Below are positions 18,357 to 27,878 of a stretch of DNA of 64,000 nucleotides, in pieces. The stretch's first letter is position 1; the number at the start of each line of letters is the position of its first letter. The position numbers and the translations under genes are program-made. Under the pieces are notes generated by a model that was not told the origin of the DNA, did not search any database, and saw nothing but the letters and a program-made list of their open reading frames with translations. Source of the DNA: an uncultured Ectothiorhodospiraceae bacterium (GTDB lineage Bacteria > Pseudomonadota > Gammaproteobacteria > UBA9214); contig CAMYJZ010000002.1 in NCBI GenBank assembly GCA_947258845.1, positions 5,678 to 69,677 of the forward strand, given 5' to 3'.

Positions 18357-21300
18357 TCATGATTTGTCGCTTCCGTGATGGCCCGGGAAGTCGATCAGAT
18401 CGGCATGCAAACCACACTTGCCGGCGGCTTCAACAAACACCGCCGGATCAATAACGTCCTGGTCATACTCGATCAGCATGAAATGCGGCTGTTCATCATG
18501 ACAGGCGGCGGCAATGACGCCATTCATGGCCAGCAGGTGGCCCCGCAGGTATTTGCGTTGCTCGTGGGTTGCCGCCTCATCCATGTGAAGCGTTACTTCC
18601 GAAATCCGGGTGGCCTGGGTCGCCTTTTCGTTTTGCTCTATGGAAGGCGAGGTCCCACCGGCGCCCAGGAAGACAGCCTCACCCAGCGAAATGCAACCCA
18701 GCGGGATCACAAACAAGGTCAAGATAGTTGAAACAAATACACCGAACAGCAGCGAGATCGCCATGCCCTGGAAGGTCGGGTCTGTGAGAATCACTGCCGA
18801 ACCCAGCACCAGTGCCATGGCGGTAATCACGATAGGCCGGGTACGCGCCTTCACTGCGGTGATCACGGCATCGTAAAGCGGCACCCCGTCCTTGACCAGG
18901 ACGATGGTGAAATCTATCAGCAGGATCGAGTTGCGCACGATAATACCTGACAGGGCAATCCAGCCGATCATGGAAGTGGCGGTAAAGTCGGCACCCAGCA
19001 ACCAGTGGCCGGGGACGATGCCCAGCATGGTCAGGGGGATAGGCGCCATAATGATGGCCGGGATCGAGAAATTGCCGAACTGCCACACGACCAGCATGTA
19101 GATGACGACCAGGGCCACGGCGAAGGCCATGCCCATGTCACGGAAGGTCTCGTAGGTCACCGTCCACTCGCCGGACCATTCAAATCCGGATTGCGATACG
19201 GATTCCGGCGGGCCGGTCCAGGTGCCTTCCAGTTTGACACCATCCGGGGTCGTGTACTGTTCCAGCCGTTCCTGCACATCGAACATGGCGTAAATCGGCG
19301 CCGCATACTTGCCTACGGCATCACCCACGACGAACTCCACCGGTTGCAGGTCCTTGTGAAAGATAAATGGATCGCGCACGCTCTTGACGAACTTTCCAAG
19401 TTCGGCAAGCGGTATGGTGCGGCCATCCTGGGTCATTACCGGCAGGTCGCTCAGGTTGCTCAGCCGGGAGCGTTGTGCCAGGGGAATCTGGAGCAGGATA
19501 TAGGTCGGCTCGTAAACCAGCGCCTGCTTGATATCGCCAAGCTTGAATTCACCCATGGCCATGGCCAGATGCTGGTTGATGGTCTCGACCAGCACGCCCT
19601 GGGTGGCGGCCTTGTCCAGGTCGACCTCAAAGCGCCACGTCTCGAGATCGTTGCGCATGAAATTGTCGACATCGGCCAGGTATTCCGATTCATTGAAAAT
19701 GGCGGTCATATCGGCGGCAACCTGGCGTCGGGTCGCGTCATCCGGCCCGTGGATTTCGGCCACCACGGTCTGCAGCACCGGCGGCCCCGGGGGCATCTCC
19801 ACGATAGTCAGTACCGCACCCGCCTGGTGGGCAATGGGAGTCAGCAGTTCACGGGCTGCAGTGGCAATCTCGTGACTGCTGCGCTTGCGCTCCTTCTTGT
19901 CCAGCAGTTTGACCTGGATCTCGGCCTGCCAGGGGAACTGGCGCAGGTAGTAATGGCGTACCAGGCCGTTGAAATCGAACGGCTTGGCAGTGCCAACATA
20001 ATTCTGTATGTCAATCACCTCGGGGAAAGTCCGCAGCGCATCCGTCAACTCGGCTGTCAGGCTCGCGGTGTCCGGCAGTGCGGTTCCGTCCGGCATGTCC
20101 AGGGTCAATGAAAATTCGGATTTGTTGTCAAATGGAAGCATCTTCACCGTGACGGCATAGGTGAAGAACATGGAAACTGTGACAATGAAGGCGAACAACA
20201 GGCCGATAAGGAAACTCCAGCCATAGCGAGGGGTGTAGTACAGTGCTCCAATGGTCTTGCGATAGAATTGCTCCAGCCAGCCATCGATTTTCTCGTCCCG
20301 TGCCTCCATCTTGCGGAGTTTGGCCATGGAAGGAATCATGCGCATTGCGAGCCAGGGTGCGAACACCACCGCGGCGATCAGGGAGAGAACCATGGCCACA
20401 GAGCCCAGTGCCGGGATCGGTTCCATGTAGGGTCCCATCATGCCGCGCACAAAGCCCATTGGCAGCAGGGCCGCGACTACCGTATAGGTGGCCAGCACGG
20501 TAGGGTTGCCTACCTCGCGTACCGCATCGACCGCAATCTCGGTGGTGGTCTCGCCCGCCTTCAGCCAGCGACTGTAGATGTTCTCCACGATAACAATGGC
20601 ATTGTCTACCAGGAAGCCAATGGAGAATATCAGCGCGAACAGACTGACCCGGTCGATTGTGTAACCAAGCACCATGGCGATAAAGACGGTGACCACCAGT
20701 ACCACCGGAATGGTAACCAGCACCACAATCGCCGGTCTCAATCCCAGTGACAGCCAGACCAGCAGGGTTACCGCGCCGGTGGCAATGACCAGTTTGAATA
20801 ACAGGGAGTTGACCTTGTCATTGGCGGTCTTGCCGTAGTTGCGGGTGACTTCCACGTGGACATCATCGGGGATCAGCAGGCCCTTGAGATCCTCGACCCT
20901 TGCCAGCACCCGGTTGACCACGGCAACACCGTTACTGCCGCGCTGTTTTGCGACAGCAATCGTGACTGCCGGTGCGGCAATGATCCCGGGGTTGTCACTG
21001 GCCGGGCCGGTCGTATGCGTCACGATACTGCGCGCATCTTCCGGTCCCTTGCGTACCTCTGCGACATCGCTCAGAAATACCGGCAGACCCTGGTGGCTGC
21101 CAACCACCAGTCGCTTGAAGTCATCGACCGATTCCAGGAACTTGCCGGTTTCAACGAAATAATGCTTGCCCGCCTGTTCGATAGACCCAACGGTTTGCTC
21201 GGTATTGAAACCCTGGATGGTGGCGGCGATATGTCCCATGCTGATACCGTAGCCGGTGAGCCGTTCGGGTTGTATTTCGACAATCACCTGCTCTGCCCGG

Positions 21301-21884
21301 CCACCGGATATAAAGGCGGTCCCCGTCTGCGGCAGTGATTTGATATCCTGCAATACGCTGATGGCGAGTGTACGCAACACCGCATCATCCAGTTCCTGTG
21401 ACCACAGGGTCAAGGTAACGACCGGTACGTCATCGACTTCCTTGATCTTGACGAGTGGCATTTCCACGCCGGGCGGCATGACATCCAGGTTCTGCTGGAT
21501 CTTGTTATGAGTGAGCACAATGGCGCGCTCGATTTCCTCGCCGACGTGGAATTCCAGGGTAATGATGCCCATTTCCTCGTCACTGACTGAATAGACATGC
21601 TTGACGCCGGCAATCTCGCTGACGATCCGTTCCAGTGGACTGACTGCCAGCCTGGACATCTCCTGGGATGATGCGCCGGGCATGCGCAGGAATATATCCA
21701 CCATGGGTACCGAGATCTGTGGATCCTCCTGACGGGGAGTGGCCAGCAATCCGTATGCGCCCACGAGCATAAAGGCAATGAACAACAGGGGAGAAAGCGG
21801 AGAGTGGATAAAGGAGTCGGCCAGGCGGCCTGCAAAACCAAGTTCATCCTTGGTGAGCATGTCTTTTTTATGGGTACTGGTCAT
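18357..21884 (-). CDS. RND efflux transporter permease (12-TM, CusA/CzcA-like N-terminus) with a ~110-aa extra C-terminal cytoplasmic HMA-like domain
   Basis: 1175 aa. RND hallmarks (FLVDNAIVIVENI, two large periplasmic loops, duplicated 6-TM halves). The C-terminal extension ...RISEVTLHMDEAATHEQRKYLRGHLLAMNGVIAAACHDEQPHFMLIEYDQDVIDPAVFVEAAGKCGLHADLI has an HMA-like beta-alpha-beta-beta-alpha-beta pattern, with His in place of the CxxC site. Confidence 0.85.
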   Translation of the reverse strand: MTSTHKKDMLTKDELGFAGRLADSFIHSPLSPLLFIAFMLVGAYGLLATPRQEDPQISVPMVDIFLRMPGASSQEMSRLAVSPLERIVSEIAGVKHVYSVSDEEMGIITLEFHVGEEIERAIVLTHNKIQQNLDVMPPGVEMPLVKIKEVDDVPVVTLTLWSQELDDAVLRTLAISVLQDIKSLPQTGTAFISGGRAEQVIVEIQPERLTGYGISMGHIAATIQGFNTEQTVGSIEQAGKHYFVETGKFLESVDDFKRLVVGSHQGLPVFLSDVAEVRKGPEDARSIVTHTTGPASDNPGIIAAPAVTIAVAKQRGSNGVAVVNRVLARVEDLKGLLIPDDVHVEVTRNYGKTANDKVNSLLFKLVIATGAVTLLVWLSLGLRPAIVVLVTIPVVLVVTVFIAMVLGYTIDRVSLFALIFSIGFLVDNAIVIVENIYSRWLKAGETTTEIAVDAVREVGNPTVLATYTVVAALLPMGFVRGMMGPYMEPIPALGSVAMVLSLIAAVVFAPWLAMRMIPSMAKLRKMEARDEKIDGWLEQFYRKTIGALYYTPRYGWSFLIGLLFAFIVTVSMFFTYAVTVKMLPFDNKSEFSLTLDMPDGTALPDTASLTAELTDALRTFPEVIDIQNYVGTAKPFDFNGLVRHYYLRQFPWQAEIQVKLLDKKERKRSSHEIATAARELLTPIAHQAGAVLTIVEMPPGPPVLQTVVAEIHGPDDATRRQVAADMTAIFNESEYLADVDNFMRNDLETWRFEVDLDKAATQGVLVETINQHLAMAMGEFKLGDIKQALVYEPTYILLQIPLAQRSRLSNLSDLPVMTQDGRTIPLAELGKFVKSVRDPFIFHKDLQPVEFVVGDAVGKYAAPIYAMFDVQERLEQYTTPDGVKLEGTWTGPPESVSQSGFEWSGEWTVTYETFRDMGMAFAVALVVIYMLVVWQFGNFSIPAIIMAPIPLTMLGIVPGHWLLGADFTATSMIGWIALSGIIVRNSILLIDFTIVLVKDGVPLYDAVITAVKARTRPIVITAMALVLGSAVILTDPTFQGMAISLLFGVFVSTILTLFVIPLGCISLGEAVFLGAGGTSPSIEQNEKATQATRISEVTLHMDEAATHEQRKYLRGHLLAMNGVIAAACHDEQPHFMLIEYDQDVIDPAVFVEAAGKCGLHADLIDFPGHHGSDKS

Positions 21885-22008: not shown

Positions 22009-23154
22009 TTACTCCATCGCTCCTGACATGGTTGAGGGTGTCGGCTTCTTCAGGATGCGGTCTCCGGCCTGGATGCCCGAGATGACGCTGATTTGCCCGT
22101 CACTGGTTTGCGTCCCGAGGCGCAGCACCTTCATCTTCAGGTGACCGTCCTCGCTGACCTTGAAGACCGCCGGGAGGCTGCCGCGCCACACGACGGCGGA
22201 TGCCGGAACCACGGGCAGTTCCTGTCCCTTGTGCGCCAGGTCCGGGATCAGCACTTCGGCGTAGGTGCCCGTTTTGGCCTTGATCCCTTCCGGGATACCG
22301 AATTTCACCGTTGTGGTATGGCCGCCCTTCTGGGCCATGGGGAACACCCGGTCCACCTTGACCTGGATTACGCTGCGTTCACTTCCCACCCTGGCCATCA
22401 GGGTCTCGCCTTCCTGGACCGCGTCCAGCAGACGGGTGGGAACCTCGACCTGGATTTGCATCTCGGTGGTATCGGCAAATGCAAGCAAGGGCATCCCCGG
22501 TTGCACTATATCGCCCACCTCGATCATCTTTGAGACGATGATCCCGTCAAACGGCGCCCGGCTGAAGGTGTTTTCAATGGATTCATCAAGTTCCCGGATG
22601 GCCTGCCGTGCCTGCAGAACACTGTTGGACGCGGTCTGTAGCTGGGTTCCCTGTCCGACCAGGCCTGCATGCCGCTCATATCCCGGTTCGCCCTGGCCCG
22701 TCATGGAGCGCATCGGGTCCGTGAACATGCTGAACATGCTGGGCATGCCCCCCATCATGGTATTGGATTGTGCGTTGGGTGACAGGACCTCGCGATTGAA
22801 CTGCACATAGGCGTTGTGGTAGGCGGCCTCTGCATTCGCGAGTTGTGCTTCCGCCTGTTTGCGTTTGGCCAGCAGGGCCGATTGATCCAGCTGGACCAGT
22901 ATCGTGTCTTTGGTAAAGGCATCGCCTTCTTCGCCGGCTATGAACTCCACATCGCCCGGCATCTGGGCAGACAGATTCACCATCTTGCGCGCAATAACCG
23001 TCCCGCCCAGGGTGATCACTCCACCGGTATCGGCTTCTTTTACTGTAATGATTTCCGGGCCGGAATCAGCAGGTGTCTCATCCGCAGAGGCCTGTGCGAA
23101 ACAGCCACCCGTCAGGGTGGCTCCGAGAATCGTGGCAACAAGAAAACGAATCAT
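22009..23154 (-). CDS. RND efflux periplasmic adaptor (membrane-fusion protein) with a Met-rich insertion
   Basis: ORF 22009..23301. A signal/lipobox-like start MIRFLVATILGATLTGGC begins at 23154. HlyD/MFP coiled-coil and beta-barrel regions. Met-rich segment NTMMGGMPSMFSMFTDPMRSM (nt ~22700-22760), like CusB/CusF Cu(I)/Ag(I) sites. 125 bp upstream of the RND gene on the same strand. Confidence 0.8.
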   Translation of the reverse strand: MIRFLVATILGATLTGGCFAQASADETPADSGPEIITVKEADTGGVITLGGTVIARKMVNLSAQMPGDVEFIAGEEGDAFTKDTILVQLDQSALLAKRKQAEAQLANAEAAYHNAYVQFNREVLSPNAQSNTMMGGMPSMFSMFTDPMRSMTGQGEPGYERHAGLVGQGTQLQTASNSVLQARQAIRELDESIENTFSRAPFDGIIVSKMIEVGDIVQPGMPLLAFADTTEMQIQVEVPTRLLDAVQEGETLMARVGSERSVIQVKVDRVFPMAQKGGHTTTVKFGIPEGIKAKTGTYAEVLIPDLAHKGQELPVVPASAVVWRGSLPAVFKVSEDGHLKMKVLRLGTQTSDGQISVISGIQAGDRILKKPTPSTMSGAME

Positions 23155-23816: not shown

Positions 23817-26800
23817 ATGAGTAAAAACAGCGAAACACCTCAGGAATCCAAACGGGACAATCCGAATTCCGGCGACGGACCGGGTGGCGGAAACGCCGTT
23901 ACCGGGCCTGTACAGGGGGCAACGGGATTTGTCCCGAAAGTGGCCGAGTTGAACGAGGAGATCAACCGGCTGTTTGGAAAAATGCATGGTCTGGATGAGG
24001 CACTGCGTGAAAGTGATGATCGCGCCCGGCAGATTGAGGAGAAGAGCCATACGATCGCCGAGCTGCAAGACCAGATTGAAGAAAAGAGCGGTGAAATCGA
24101 TCGCCTGCAAATTGACATTGACGGGCTGCACGACTCCCTGAGCAAGCAGGAACAGCGGTTCGAGGACCAGCTGCATGGCAAGCAGTCGGAGATCGGTGAA
24201 CTGGAGGGCAGGGTATCGGAGCGTGGCCAGGAGGTCAGCCGGCTGTATGGACATGTCGAGGAAAAGGGCCTGGTCATCAACCAGCTGACCGAACAGCTCG
24301 GTCAGCGTGATGAAGAGCTTGTCAGCCTGCAAGGCGATGTAGAGGGCAGGGAACAGACGATTGCCCGGCTCGAGGGTGAACTCGGGGAACTGGATGCCAG
24401 CTTTAGGGAAGGCAAGGAACGCAGCGATGCGCTACTTGAGGAGAGGCAGGAGCAGATCGCCCGACTGGAGTGGAAGGTCAAGGAGAAATACAAGGAGATC
24501 ACCCAACTGCATGGCAAGATCCATGACCTCGGTGACGAGTTGCGTGGCAGCGAGGAACGTGCCGAACAGCTTTCCCAGGAAAAGACCCAGGTCACTGTTG
24601 AACTGGAGGGGCGAATTGCAGGGAAAGAACGCGAAATTTCAGAATTAAATGAACGTGCTGGTGAAATGGCGCAGGAAATCGCCAATCTGACCGGACAGGT
24701 GAATGAACAGGCGCAGATCATCACCGGCCTGGAGGAGCAGGCCGCGGAACTGCAAAACAGCTTGCGATTTGCCGAGGAGCAGGCCGAACAGCGGCTGGAA
24801 GAGAAGCAGCGGGAAATTGCCGGCTTGCATGGACAGGTCGAGGACCTGAATGCGGCTATGCATGCCAGCGAAGAGCAGGCCGCCCGGCAGATTGCAGAGA
24901 AGGGTGATGAGATCACGCGCCTGGTTGCGGATCTTGAAGAGAAAGACCAGGCACTGGTTCAGTCGCAGGCAAGTGCCAGAGAGAAAGACGAGGCCATCGA
25001 CGGGCTGGAAGAGAGCATTCAGCAGTTGAACATGAGCATGCGCACTGTAGAAGAGCGGGCCGCGCAGGAACTCGAGAGCAAGCAGAAGGAAGTCACTGAG
25101 CTGGAATGGAGCGTCAAGGATAAAAACGCTGAAATCAGTGAATTGCACGGGAATATCCGTGATCTGAGTGCCGAGCTGAGTAACTCTCAGGAGCAGGCCG
25201 AGCGCCAGCTGGATACGAAATCACGGGAGATCGAGCAGTTCGAGACCCAGGTCCGGATGCTGGAGCAGGACAAGCGTGAGAGTGCCGAGCGTACCGGGCA
25301 GGAATTGCAGGAAAAGGCAAAATATATCAGTCAACTTGAAGCCAGGCTGGAGCATCTGAATACGGCCCTGCATGAAAACAAGGAAAGTGCGACACAACAG
25401 ATAGCAGAACAGACCCGGGTCGCTGAGACCCAATCACAGCTAGTTGCCCAGCTTGAGCAGCAGCTGGAGCAGCAGCAGGCTGCCATGAATACCAACGTCG
25501 AGAACAGTGCCCGGGAACTACAGGCCAAGATGCAAGAGGTCACTCAGTTGTCCAAGGCGCTGGAACAGAAGGCTGATGAGGTCACTGAGCTGCATGGCAA
25601 GGTCCGCGAGGTTGGTGCAGAACTGGATGCCCGTGAGGCGCATGCCGCCGAGCAGGTGCAGGAACATGAACAGGTGGTTCGCCAGCTCAAGGAAAGAATC
25701 GGGGAACAGATGACGACCTTGCAGGATGTTGCTGAGCAGGCCAGAAAGCAGCAGAAGGGGAAGATGCAGACAATCGGCGAACTCGAGAAGCAGCTCAGGC
25801 AGCAGTCGGCGGCCATGGCGGATGTGGTCGAGGAGGCCCGGCAGCAGCAGGAACAGCAGAGGCAGACGATCGGCGAGCTCGAGGAGCAGCTCAGGCAGCA
25901 GTCGGAAAGCGGCAGTGGCCAGGCCAGCAAGTATGCGGAAGAGCTCGAGGCAAGCCAGGAAACCATCAAGCGGCTCACTGCGGATATCGATGAAAAAGAT
26001 AAGGAAATCAGTAATCTGAATAACAAGTTCGAGGAGGTGAATACCCGCCTGGGTGAGAGCAACGCGCGTATCGCCTGGCAAAACAAGGAGAATTCCAGGG
26101 CCATCAACCAGCTGAAGGCCCAGCTCAAGCAGGAATCCGTCGGCATGCGCGAACACACAAGCCAGGCCGCGCAGCAGCTGCAAGAAAAGGACGAGGAGAT
26201 TGCAGAAAAGGCGCAGCTCATCAGCCGCATGGAGGAACAGGTCCGGGAGATGCAGGCCTCAGGGAAGGCGGCACAGGAAAGGGCCGAGCAGCTGAGTGCG
26301 GAAAATGCCCGCCTGTCCAAGACGGTGAAGGCATCTGAACAACAGGACCGGCCGGCAGCCACTAGCGGTGGCAATGAAACGGTATCGGGGAACAAGGAAC
26401 AGGAAGTCGTCAAGTTGCAGAATACGGAGATTGCCCGGCTGCAGGAACACGTCCAGAAACTTAAGGTCAAACTCAATGAGAATGCCGAGCGACAGCTGCA
26501 GAAAAAGCAGGAGCAGAGTTCGCAGCCGGTGACCAACGCAATCAAGACCGTGATGGAAGACAAGCTGAAGAAGCTGAGTACCCTGGACACGCTGACCGGG
26601 ATGGTGAACCGTCAGCACTTCATGAAGGTGCTGGACGCATCGGTCAAGACTGAAGACGCGGCAGGTCAGTCGGTGCTTTACATCCTGCTGCATAACTTCA
26701 GGGATATTCGCGAGAAGATCGGTGTGTCTGACAGTGATGTGGTCCTGCGCAATGTTGCAAGCATCATCCAGGCCGATCTTGGTAAGCAGGATGTGGCATC

Positions 26801-27878
26801 TCGCTTCGGCTACTACGTATTCACCGTCCTGCATCAGGGGAGTGATGCGATGACGGCTAACCAGCTTGCCGAACAAATTCTCCACAAGCTGGAGAATCAT
26901 GTTTTCAATGCAGGGGAGCACACTGTCAGGGTGAGTCCGAGTATCGGTATCAGCGAGGTCAGCAATAGCGTACATAGCGCCGAGGGCCTGATCCAGCGTG
27001 CCGATCTTGCCTGCGAGGTGGCCCGTTCATCCAGTGGAACCAGGGTCTACACTCACAATTCAGCGGTAGAGGAACAGCTTGCTCCGGAGCATGAAACGGA
27101 GTCGCACCTGATGGTGAGGAAGACGCTGCAGGATGAGCGGTTCTACCTGGTTTACCAGCCAATAGTCAGTCTTGCAGAAGACAAGCAGCAGCGCTACGAG
27201 GTGTTGTTGCGGATCCTTGATGAAGATGGCGAGGTTGTTCTACCCAGCCAGTTCCTGAAAGTGGCGGAATCGATGGGCCTGAGTGGTGAGGTGGATATCT
27301 GGGTGATCGAGAATGCCTTCAAAAAGCTCGCGGAACTGCAGCGCGAGGACAAGGATGCCACCTTCTATATCAAGGTCTCGGGCAAGACCATCGCCGACAG
27401 GGAGCTTGCCCTGTGGATTGACGCGAAGATGAACGATTACCAGCTGCAGCGCGAGAACGTGGTCATCGAGATTGCAGAAGAATCCGTGCTCAATGATATG
27501 GAAAACAGTATGGCATTTGTGACATCCATGCATAACCTGGGTTGCAAGGTGGCACTGGAACATTATGGTGCATCAAGTCCTCCCCAGGTTCTCAAACGTC
27601 TTCCCGTCGATGTCCTCAAGGTGAATGGCGGCCTGATTGCGGGTATGGCGGGCAGCGAGGAGAACCAGGTCACTGTGAAGACCATCATCACGCTGGCGCG
27701 AGATCTCGGTATGGAATGCGTCGCTGAACAGGTCGAGGACACTGTCGTGCTGGCACTGCTGTGGCAGTACGGTGTCCAGTTTGTCCAGGGGAACTTCGTC
27801 CAGATACCGAGCAGGAATCTCGATTACAATTTCGAGGCCAGCGTCACCGGCAACGAGTCCAGCGTTTTCTCCGCGTAA
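23817..27878 (+). CDS. Giant coiled-coil protein with C-terminal degenerate GGDEF and degenerate EAL (EVL-type) domains; putative c-di-GMP receptor or scaffold
   Basis: 1353 aa. About 900 aa with heptad-like E/Q/K/L-rich repeats and recurring ~90-aa modules carrying ELHGK/GLHGQ/ELHGN motifs. GGDEF-like region with RFGYYVF in place of RYGGEEF. EAL region with EVLLR, but DDFGTG replaced by EHYGAS and KIDRSF by KVNGGL. No TM or signal peptide. Confidence 0.8.
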   Translation: MSKNSETPQESKRDNPNSGDGPGGGNAVTGPVQGATGFVPKVAELNEEINRLFGKMHGLDEALRESDDRARQIEEKSHTIAELQDQIEEKSGEIDRLQIDIDGLHDSLSKQEQRFEDQLHGKQSEIGELEGRVSERGQEVSRLYGHVEEKGLVINQLTEQLGQRDEELVSLQGDVEGREQTIARLEGELGELDASFREGKERSDALLEERQEQIARLEWKVKEKYKEITQLHGKIHDLGDELRGSEERAEQLSQEKTQVTVELEGRIAGKEREISELNERAGEMAQEIANLTGQVNEQAQIITGLEEQAAELQNSLRFAEEQAEQRLEEKQREIAGLHGQVEDLNAAMHASEEQAARQIAEKGDEITRLVADLEEKDQALVQSQASAREKDEAIDGLEESIQQLNMSMRTVEERAAQELESKQKEVTELEWSVKDKNAEISELHGNIRDLSAELSNSQEQAERQLDTKSREIEQFETQVRMLEQDKRESAERTGQELQEKAKYISQLEARLEHLNTALHENKESATQQIAEQTRVAETQSQLVAQLEQQLEQQQAAMNTNVENSARELQAKMQEVTQLSKALEQKADEVTELHGKVREVGAELDAREAHAAEQVQEHEQVVRQLKERIGEQMTTLQDVAEQARKQQKGKMQTIGELEKQLRQQSAAMADVVEEARQQQEQQRQTIGELEEQLRQQSESGSGQASKYAEELEASQETIKRLTADIDEKDKEISNLNNKFEEVNTRLGESNARIAWQNKENSRAINQLKAQLKQESVGMREHTSQAAQQLQEKDEEIAEKAQLISRMEEQVREMQASGKAAQERAEQLSAENARLSKTVKASEQQDRPAATSGGNETVSGNKEQEVVKLQNTEIARLQEHVQKLKVKLNENAERQLQKKQEQSSQPVTNAIKTVMEDKLKKLSTLDTLTGMVNRQHFMKVLDASVKTEDAAGQSVLYILLHNFRDIREKIGVSDSDVVLRNVASIIQADLGKQDVASRFGYYVFTVLHQGSDAMTANQLAEQILHKLENHVFNAGEHTVRVSPSIGISEVSNSVHSAEGLIQRADLACEVARSSSGTRVYTHNSAVEEQLAPEHETESHLMVRKTLQDERFYLVYQPIVSLAEDKQQRYEVLLRILDEDGEVVLPSQFLKVAESMGLSGEVDIWVIENAFKKLAELQREDKDATFYIKVSGKTIADRELALWIDAKMNDYQLQRENVVIEIAEESVLNDMENSMAFVTSMHNLGCKVALEHYGASSPPQVLKRLPVDVLKVNGGLIAGMAGSEENQVTVKTIITLARDLGMECVAEQVEDTVVLALLWQYGVQFVQGNFVQIPSRNLDYNFEASVTGNESSVFSA
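25767..25905 (+). repeat. Intragenic tandem duplication (43-bp near-identical units CAGAC[A/G]ATCGGCGA[A/G]CTCGAG[A/G]AGCAGCTCAGGCAGCAGTCGG, 96 bp apart) encoding QTIGELE[K/E]QLRQQS twice
   Basis: Read directly from the sequence. Confidence 0.7.

Follow-up and report, generated by a model that had tools for sequence, protein, structure and literature searches.

A Predicted HMA-Superfamily Domain without a CxxC Site at the Cytoplasmic C-Terminus of a Bacterial RND Permease

In an uncultured Ectothiorhodospiraceae bacterium, the permease of a resistance-nodulation-division (RND) efflux pump continues, behind its twelfth transmembrane (TM) helix, into a small cytoplasmic domain that almost certainly belongs to the heavy-metal-associated (HMA) superfamily and that lacks the CxxC metal site of canonical HMA domains. 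The gene lies on the minus strand, at 18357..21884, of the 64,000-nucleotide stretch of DNA analysed here (hereafter the window; GenBank assembly GCA_947258845.1, contig CAMYJZ010000002.1, positions 5,678 to 69,677). The domain is related to a family of free-standing proteins of ~75 amino acids (aa), and the extension is a lineage-specific capture of this widespread small protein. An earlier reading of the window from its sequence alone (the sequence-only reading) had proposed an HMA-like cytoplasmic domain at the end of the permease; below we report how that proposal fared, and what the fused domain might do.

Results

The Fused Domain and Its Relatives

The open reading frame (ORF) encodes a protein of 1175 aa. 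Residues 26–1062 match Pfam ACR_tran (PF00873) over profile positions 6–1015 of 1021 (E=1.1e-138), and a score of 464 bits, against a cut-off of 28, identifies the protein as an RND permease. Because the match ends at residue 1062, the RND body (residues 1–1062, 12 TM helices; 18699..21884, minus strand), which is also recognised through NCBIfam RND_permease_2 and relatives in the PDB, is over at about that point, and 113 more residues follow. The sequence-only reading had counted about 110 extra residues, and this was right: 18360–18692 corresponds to residues 1065–1175, and the peptide that it quoted is present there exactly. Three segments, all on the minus strand, make up the addition: a linker (residues 1063–1092, GCISLGEAVFLGAGGTSPSIEQNEKATQAT; 18609..18698) with no family match and a low pLDDT in a single-sequence model; the domain itself (residues 1093–1166; 18387..18608); and a lineage-specific end, PGHHGSDKS (residues 1167–1175; 18360..18386; pLDDT about 61–66), which shares 67% aa identity with the contig L001 that carries the fused relative P0002. 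This end had been described earlier as the close of the extension, which it is; it is missing from the free-standing homologues and from the fused variant P0297, and it forms no part of the domain.

The assignment of the domain draws on phmmer, AlphaFold2, Foldseek and a family profile. When residues 1093–1175 (83 aa) were compared by phmmer with 1.84 billion representative proteins, 51 matches were obtained at E<=1e-3, the best at 8.3e-19 (P0122), and nearly all of these are proteins of 73–78 aa that align across positions 2–74 of the tail (adding 1092 to tail numbering gives protein numbering). Long matches (472–1219 aa) were considered as further fusions and rejected; they are WD40, Big_3 and other repeat proteins, and were treated as spurious. 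Against a hidden Markov model (HMM) of the free-standing family the tail scores 95 bits (E=1.9e-28). The sole match of a word-index search with the tail alone was a fragment of the same gene.

Modelled by AlphaFold2 with a 42-sequence family alignment (A2), the tail is predicted to form a complete beta-alpha-beta-beta-alpha-beta domain at a mean pLDDT of 92.4, with a strand at tail positions 2–9, a helix at 15–26, strands at 31–36 and 43–49, a helix at 56–64 and a strand at 69–72. The family alignment is needed for this result; the tail as a single sequence gives an uninformative model (pLDDT 46). In a Foldseek comparison of the prediction with the PDB, HMA domains account for all 50 matches listed (TM-score 0.63–0.78, probability 1.00; root-mean-square deviation 1.6–2.5 Å for most), among them RAN1, ATP7B, PacS, CopZ, MerP and plant integrated HMA domains. 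As modelled, then, this is a domain of ~70 residues with the HMA order of elements, which superposes on solved HMA structures and is at the level of the fold a member of the superfamily. The structure prediction that the sequence-only reading had suggested as a check bears out its HMA-like domain and amends its description of the segment as the second half of a ferredoxin fold: the whole fold is predicted, within residues 1093–1166.

Sequence comparison leads to the same superfamily, provided that the family rather than the tail is used as the query. The family profile matches ATP7B (6.5e-17, six domains summed; 2ew9, 1.9e-9), Bacillus subtilis CopA (1p6t, 6.1e-6), a domain of ATP7A (1yju, 3e-4) and CopZ (1cpz, 1.3e-3), and every one of its significant matches in the PDB is an HMA domain. 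The tail alone has a single, non-significant PDB match, to the HMA pair of ATP7B (E=0.68), and none in Pfam (E<=1) or NCBIfam; the HMA-like motif pattern reported earlier holds, therefore, through the family profile and not for the tail by itself. Among the 42 family members, Pfam HMA (PF00403) gives sub-threshold matches for only five (best E=0.0024, short of the gathering threshold), and the NCBIfam models CopZ, CsoZ and UxxU give only sub-threshold matches to individual members. Since individual members remain sub-threshold while the family profile is significant, we place the family within the HMA superfamily and in none of its described families. The topology of RND permeases is established, and the segment after TM12 is cytoplasmic; the lack of a signal peptide in the free-standing homologues fits this side of the membrane, and the cytoplasmic location proposed from the sequence alone stands.

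Conserved Residues of the Domain

Conservation was assessed in 240 non-identical family members aligned to the family HMM. His occupies position 8 (H1100) in 99% of them, position 42 (H1134) in 98% and position 68 (H1160) in 92%; Glu occupies position 11 (E1103) in 98%; and position 10 (D1102) is Asp in 81% and Asp or Asn in 98%. G30 (99%), L43 (94%) and an aromatic residue, Tyr or Phe, at position 48 (Y1140; 99%) are comparably constant. The core of HMA domains in general includes G30 and Y48; what sets this family apart is its His and Glu residues. These residues make up three motifs, H-[ILV]-[DN]-E at the end of beta1, P-H-[LFM] at the start of beta3 and G-x-H-A-[EQD]-L at the start of beta4, which the window's tail bears as LHMDE, PHF and GLHADL; by these it belongs to the free-standing, His-type family. 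His reaches a frequency of at least 15% at positions 8, 15, 19, 37, 42 and 68 only, acidic residues are concentrated at positions 10, 11, 14, 16, 38, 39 and 70, the mean His content is 6.9%, and 146 of the 240 members (61%) have no Cys.

The CxxC cysteines of ATP7B align with T14 and Q17 (T1106 and Q1109), positions at which Cys occurs in 0% of the family, so that the GMxCxxC motif is absent. On the predicted secondary structure, the conserved His and acidic positions fall where beta1 ends and its loop leads into alpha1, at the start of alpha1, in the hairpin between beta2 and beta3, and in the loop from alpha2 to beta4. All of these would lie at a single pole, the one that bears the CxxC loop in HMA domains when a ferredoxin-like fold has the sheet order 4-1-3-2. 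The notion of His replacing the CxxC site is in this sense partly sustained: conserved His residues are predicted by topology at the same pole, but Thr and Gln hold the CxxC positions themselves, and the intervening position 15 is occupied by His in just 37% of members. The sequence-only reading had also undercounted, giving six His and a single Cys (in AACHD); 18360–18692 encodes eight His and two Cys, in AACHD and GKCGL, neither of them conserved. Mean-field direct coupling analysis of the 240 sequences, applied to the strand registers, gave a signal dominated by artefacts.

The Fusion and Its Lineage

Among the 120 closest RND homologues, the HMA-like tail occurs only in P0002, which is 93% identical to the window's protein. 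The 90%-identity cluster of P0002 comprises 11 sequences, eight of them full-length fused proteins (from NCBI metagenome-assembled genomes, JGI and ENA); seven have 1175 aa and one, P0297, has 1166 aa and lacks the DFPGHHGSDKS end. All eight retain the signature residues. The fused form is represented by at least nine distinct sequence variants, all from one narrow lineage, so the extension is not peculiar to this genome; nor is it a conserved feature of the RND subfamily, the other outcome that an alignment of homologues might have had, for it is confined to a single 90%-identity cluster, and orthologues of 77% identity or less carry unrelated tails. The representative library had been collapsed at 50% identity, phmmer did not return the pump from which the query was taken, and the word-indexed search missed even P0002; fused RND proteins may thus escape these searches, and further RND fusions are possible.

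Contig L001 is syntenic with the window, and the two were compared for estimates of selection. The ratio of non-synonymous to synonymous substitution rates (dN/dS) is 0.047 for the body and about 0.04 for the domain (35 synonymous versus 16 non-synonymous differences, with dS saturated). There is no start codon ahead of the domain and no stop codon between it and the body, and from this, together with the purifying selection, we conclude that the fusion is genuine and selectively maintained. The linker, with 73% aa identity and a dN/dS of 0.13, is among the two fastest-evolving segments. The proportion of synonymous differences is 0.72 in the tail (window 18360–18698, minus strand, versus L001:6708–7046) and 0.44 in the body; codon constraint may be relaxed in the tail, or the tail may have recombined separately, and either could account for such high synonymous divergence. 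Neither the 64-kb window nor the surroundings of the orthologous pumps were found to hold a second copy of the domain.

One related strain, 95.8% identical in DNA, carries a 13-bp deletion inside TM12 (L092:2132–2160, equivalent to about 18720–18735 of the window). The deletion shifts the frame of the pump, and because of it the tail is called as a separate ORF of 117 aa. The sequence may represent a pseudogene variant, or the assembly may be wrong here.

The Free-Standing Family

The free-standing cytoplasmic proteins of ~75 aa form what is, to judge from sequence comparison, a previously undescribed family; no Pfam or NCBIfam model was found to cover the 42 members scanned. A profile search of a 5.8-billion-protein collection gave 163 matches, and among the 120 listed all are 73–92 aa long save two, a 143-aa protein without a Pfam match and a frameshifted fragment of the RND-fusion gene. 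The matches are named in their sources as "hypothetical", "heavy-metal-associated domain-containing" and, once, "ATP-binding". In a species-representative genome set, 264 places encode a relative of the family, mostly in sulfur-oxidising Gammaproteobacteria; the main taxa are Thioalkalivibrio, Ectothiorhodospiraceae, Thiogranum, Thiohalophilus, Thiohalobacter, Sulfuriflexus, Thiomargarita, Acidiferrobacterales and Candidatus Thiodiazotropha.

The free-standing genes appear to be monocistronic. Within 250 nt upstream of 19 of 79 such genes we found FNR/CRP-type boxes (TTGAT-N4-ATCAA, at most one mismatch), compared with 0.83 expected from shuffling (maximum 3 in 200 shuffles) and with 2 of 69 in DNA 1 kb downstream. 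Nine of the sites lie at -76 to -99 from the ATG (for example L044, -76; L065, -99; L010, -84), and the box of L010 is centred ~41.5 nt upstream of the start site predicted from a TAGAAT -10 element, which corresponds to class II geometry. These boxes suggest that in several lineages the family is controlled in response to oxygen or redox state; none was found in the window. On one contig (L002) a second ORF of 77 aa without a Pfam match (L002:2052–2285, minus strand) lies ~4 kb from the free-standing member P0174, and a gene of the MMPL type, within the RND superfamily, lies ~1.3 kb downstream on the opposite strand.

The Pump and Its Surroundings

Among NCBIfam models the pump body is matched best by RND_permease_2 (7.3e-134, 448 bits), as against 8.6e-66 for CusA/CzcA, all scores being under the curated cut-offs; for the heavy-metal-efflux model (CusA/CzcA, TIGR00914) the score is 222 bits against a cut-off of 701, which places the permease outside that family. 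The nearest solved structures are MexK, TriC (6vej) and MdtB, and neither CusA nor ZneA is among the 60 best PDB matches.

Upstream in the same operon is the gene for a membrane-fusion (periplasmic adaptor) protein (22009..23154, minus strand; 381 aa from the Met of MIRFLV...; Pfam HlyD_3 7.6e-13, HlyD_D23 3.5e-12), and in L001 a syntenic gene for a 381-aa adaptor precedes the RND gene. No outer-membrane factor gene was found adjoining the adaptor-RND pair. In related genomes a conserved gene for a protein of 172–177 aa follows the pair (L089:11422–11940, L090:11584–12117); its product is anchored by a TM helix at the N-terminus and is XkdW-like, though the match to PF09636 is weak, and it may be a third pump component. 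Neither the window nor L001 has this gene 3' of the RND gene, and the protein, considered as a relative of the tail, was rejected as unrelated to it. Between the adaptor gene and an SLT-like gene the window holds, at 23817–27878 (plus strand), a gene for a protein of 1353 aa, in which ~900 residues of coiled coil are followed by GGDEF (7.7e-21) and EAL (2.9e-53) domains; this gene does not occur in the syntenic contig L001.

The C-termini of the RND homologues P0003–P0121 were compared over the equivalent of window residues 1058–1175 (18360–18713), and those of the orthologues with 77% identity or less prove to be diverse. Of 117 homologues, 86 end within 50 residues of TM12; 16 have Lys-rich, low-complexity tails of 51–180 aa (KKKSVRKKAVKK), one of them with a precomputed PF07382 match; and 15 have an apparent extra hydrophobic helix and a long low-complexity tail ending in RRGIRLK. 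The tails of the orthologues are apparently disordered. From this variability we conclude that the C-terminus of the RND subfamily is a site that tolerates additions. The closest relatives (P0003–P0044) have a juxtamembrane motif of three cysteines after TM12, PLGC-x10-C-AG-x7-9-C, and 51 of the 117 homologues have at least three Cys; the window's lineage retains only the first Cys of the motif, the distal two being lost in the proteins that gained the HMA-like domain.

A tRNA-Met gene (16865..16941, plus strand; ARAGORN) lies 3' of the end of the RND gene, and in L001 the same tRNA-Met is found ~225 bp past the RND stop codon. The window differs from L001 by an insertion of ~1.4 kb between the tRNA and the stop codon, outside the fused domain (16948..18351; blastn homology ends at 18352 and resumes at 16947). 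The insertion contains a C-terminal fragment of a tyrosine integrase (16985–17236, minus strand; Pfam Phage_integrase 1.2e-6) and a 99-aa Cys-rich ORF (17950–18249, plus strand) without a family match, whose product looks secreted; the insertion resembles what is left of an integrative element, right beside the 3' end of the RND gene. Integration at a tRNA-Met hotspot is a plausible route of gene capture.

Discussion

Judged by sequence, both the domain architecture, for an RND permease, and the His-type branch of the HMA superfamily from which the domain is drawn appear to be new; no published RND-HMA fusion was found in the literature. Canonical HMA domains (PF00403), such as CopZ/Atx1 and the N-terminal domains of the P1B-ATPases ATP7A/B and CopA, resemble the tail in fold, in size and, at the profile level, in their GV, V-x-Y/F-D and G-[LYF]-x-A elements, and those of the P1B-ATPases are likewise cytoplasmic appendages of a membrane exporter. 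The tail differs in having H-x-[DN]-E, P-H-L and G-x-H-A-E motifs of its own in place of GMxCxxC, and in being attached to the C-terminus of an RND permease, not to the N-terminus of a P-type ATPase. The regulatory N-terminal HMA domains of P1B-ATPases offer one functional analogy for the mechanism that we propose below. The best such analogy, and it is an analogy only, may be the cytoplasmic C-terminal domain of the cation diffusion facilitator (CDF) exporters (YiiP, CzcD, MamM), a metallochaperone-like alpha/beta domain that binds metal through His, Asp and Glu and regulates transport allosterically, a role that has been shown experimentally; the CDF domain belongs to another transporter family, has another order of strands and helices, and gave no sequence match in any search.

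The nearest precedent for the architecture is YAM, a domain of the Escherichia coli major facilitator superfamily (MFS) transporter YajR. It is described in PMC8890360 (citing Jiang et al. 2013/2014) as a member of the HMA superfamily without metal-binding Cys at the cytosolic C-terminus of a proton-driven carrier. The tail is likewise a predicted ferredoxin-like domain without conserved Cys after TM12, on an RND permease rather than an MFS carrier, and YAM lacks the three-His/Glu signature. We considered the tail as a member of the YAM family and rejected this: the C-terminus of YajR (residues ~390–454, the YAM region) matches PF21987 at 1.4e-29 and none of the 42 family members does, and a comparison of the family alignment A2 with YAM by hhalign was non-significant (E=0.029, probability 1.7%). 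The HMA scaffold has been reused in fusions without thiolate metal binding elsewhere, in the CoBaHMA domain of calcyanin and the integrated HMA domains of plant NLR receptors (PMC8890360). CoBaHMA is distinguished by an additional strand (beta0) and by basic residues that are conserved, and the plant domains by their binding of fungal effectors; the His/Glu signature and an RND partner are lacking in both. Post-translational modulators of RND pumps are also on record. Each of AcrZ, YajC and WatS1 is a membrane protein in its own right, with a single helix, and binds to the transmembrane domain (PMC10710835); like the role proposed for the tail, theirs is to modulate RND activity at the level of protein. 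None of them is a fused, folded cytoplasmic domain, and the same review gives no example of one for RND pumps.

We propose that a member of the free-standing family was fused in frame behind TM12 through a flexible linker of ~30 residues; that His8, Asp10, Glu11, His42 and His68, with the frequent His at positions 15, 19 and 37, would form one binding site; that this His/carboxylate cluster would bind a divalent metal (Zn, Ni, Co, Fe or Cu(II), rather than Cu(I)), another small ligand or a proton; and that the three tethered copies under the RND trimer would couple the binding of ligand to the activity of the pump. The single site, the binding of a ligand and the coupling to the pump we infer in each case, and we hold the overall reading, a tethered metal- or ligand-binding module that modulates the pump, tentatively, at somewhat less than an even chance. 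A bolder and rather less probable reading is that no AcrB-type RND permease before this one has carried a folded cytoplasmic sensor of its own; drawn from a family that several lineages appear to place under FNR-type control, the sensor would bind a divalent metal (or sense pH or redox state) and gate the pump allosterically. RND efflux would then come under direct post-translational control by the status of the cytoplasm, as transport does in the CDF exporters.

A number of observations weigh against such a module. By sequence, the pump body is nearest to RND permeases of the multidrug type (MexK, TriC, MdtB) and not to CusA/CzcA, so that a metal substrate is not indicated, and the simple idea of a metal pump that carries a metal sensor loses force. 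The free-standing genes have no conserved neighbour (the commonest neighbouring family occurs at 8 of 80 loci), and an RND or adaptor gene lies within 5 kb at none of the 80; their context is therefore uninformative on function and provides no independent genomic link between the family and either RND pumps or metal homeostasis. Neither Fur-, Zur-, NikR- nor MerR-type boxes are enriched upstream of these genes. The fusion is limited to one narrow lineage, and the orthologous pumps do without it. The tail is the fastest-diverging part of the gene, with 76.6% DNA identity between the window and L001 as against 86.9% for the body and at least 82.9% in every 339-nt window of the body. The clustering of the conserved His residues in space is deduced from topology only, and relatives of HMA that lack cysteines and bind no metal are known, in the plant integrated HMA and YAM domains (PMC8890360).

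This last point lends some weight to a reading in which the domain binds no metal and is a protein-interaction or regulatory module, its conserved pole being a docking surface or a pH sensor; like YAM or the plant integrated HMA domains, it would recruit a cytoplasmic partner or allow the tails to associate under the trimer. PMC8890360 and PF21987 supply, in YAM, an example of an HMA-superfamily domain that has neither the cysteines nor a metal role and that ends a secondary transporter on its cytosolic side; the genomic context of the free-standing genes showed no relation to metals; and the FNR-type boxes at 19 of the 79 point to control linked to oxygen or redox state rather than to metal. 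Against this, three near-invariant His, an invariant Glu, a conserved Asp and a pole enriched in His characterise a metal site better than a docking surface, the neighbourhoods showed no conserved partner gene, and the relation to YAM is, as noted, non-significant in sequence, YajR being absent from the PDB matches at E<=10. We consider a module without metal possible but rather unlikely. Less probable again is that the fusion has no bearing on transport, the gene having been captured near the tRNA-Met hotspot and joined by deletion, with the domain keeping its original cellular role while tethered to the membrane. The confinement of the fusion to one lineage would agree with such a history, as would the free-standing relatives' lack of genomic association with RND pumps, the proximity of the RND 3' end to tRNA-Met in L001 and to the integrase remnant in the window, the highly variable tails of a subfamily whose C-terminus tolerates additions, and the faster divergence of the tail. 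What makes it improbable to us is that the domain is under purifying selection in its fused state and is retained in all full-length members of the lineage, and that no second, free-standing copy was seen in the 64-kb window.

Two further explanations we regard as essentially excluded. That adjacent genes were merged by a sequencing or assembly error, or that the pump reads through into non-coding DNA, could be argued from L092, in which gene callers list the tail separately, but the 117-aa ORF begins within TM12 and has no real gene start, its separation being due to the 13-bp deletion; at least eight independent full-length fused sequences, the uninterrupted frame, the homology to a real protein family (E=8e-19) and the purifying selection have already refuted an artefact. 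A classical soft-metal HMA site for Cu(I), Hg or Cd might make use of the window's two cysteines, Cys1128 and Cys1157, instead of CxxC. Neither residue is conserved, however: Cys stands at position 36 in 9% of the members and at position 65 in 1%, most members have none, and Cys1157 is replaced by Arg in the fused variant P0002, which already contradicts such a site.

RND pumps are central to the resistance of bacteria to drugs, solvents and metals. Control of these pumps at the level of protein is so far known only from small membrane helices, those of AcrZ, YajC and WatS1 (PMC10710835). If the tethered module acts as we propose, a folded, ligand-binding domain on the cytoplasmic end of the permease would represent a new mode of regulation for this class of pump. 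For the family itself, the three-His/Glu signature in place of a thiolate site would, so far as it can be read from sequence, widen the known chemistry of the HMA fold, a very common fold for the handling of metals.

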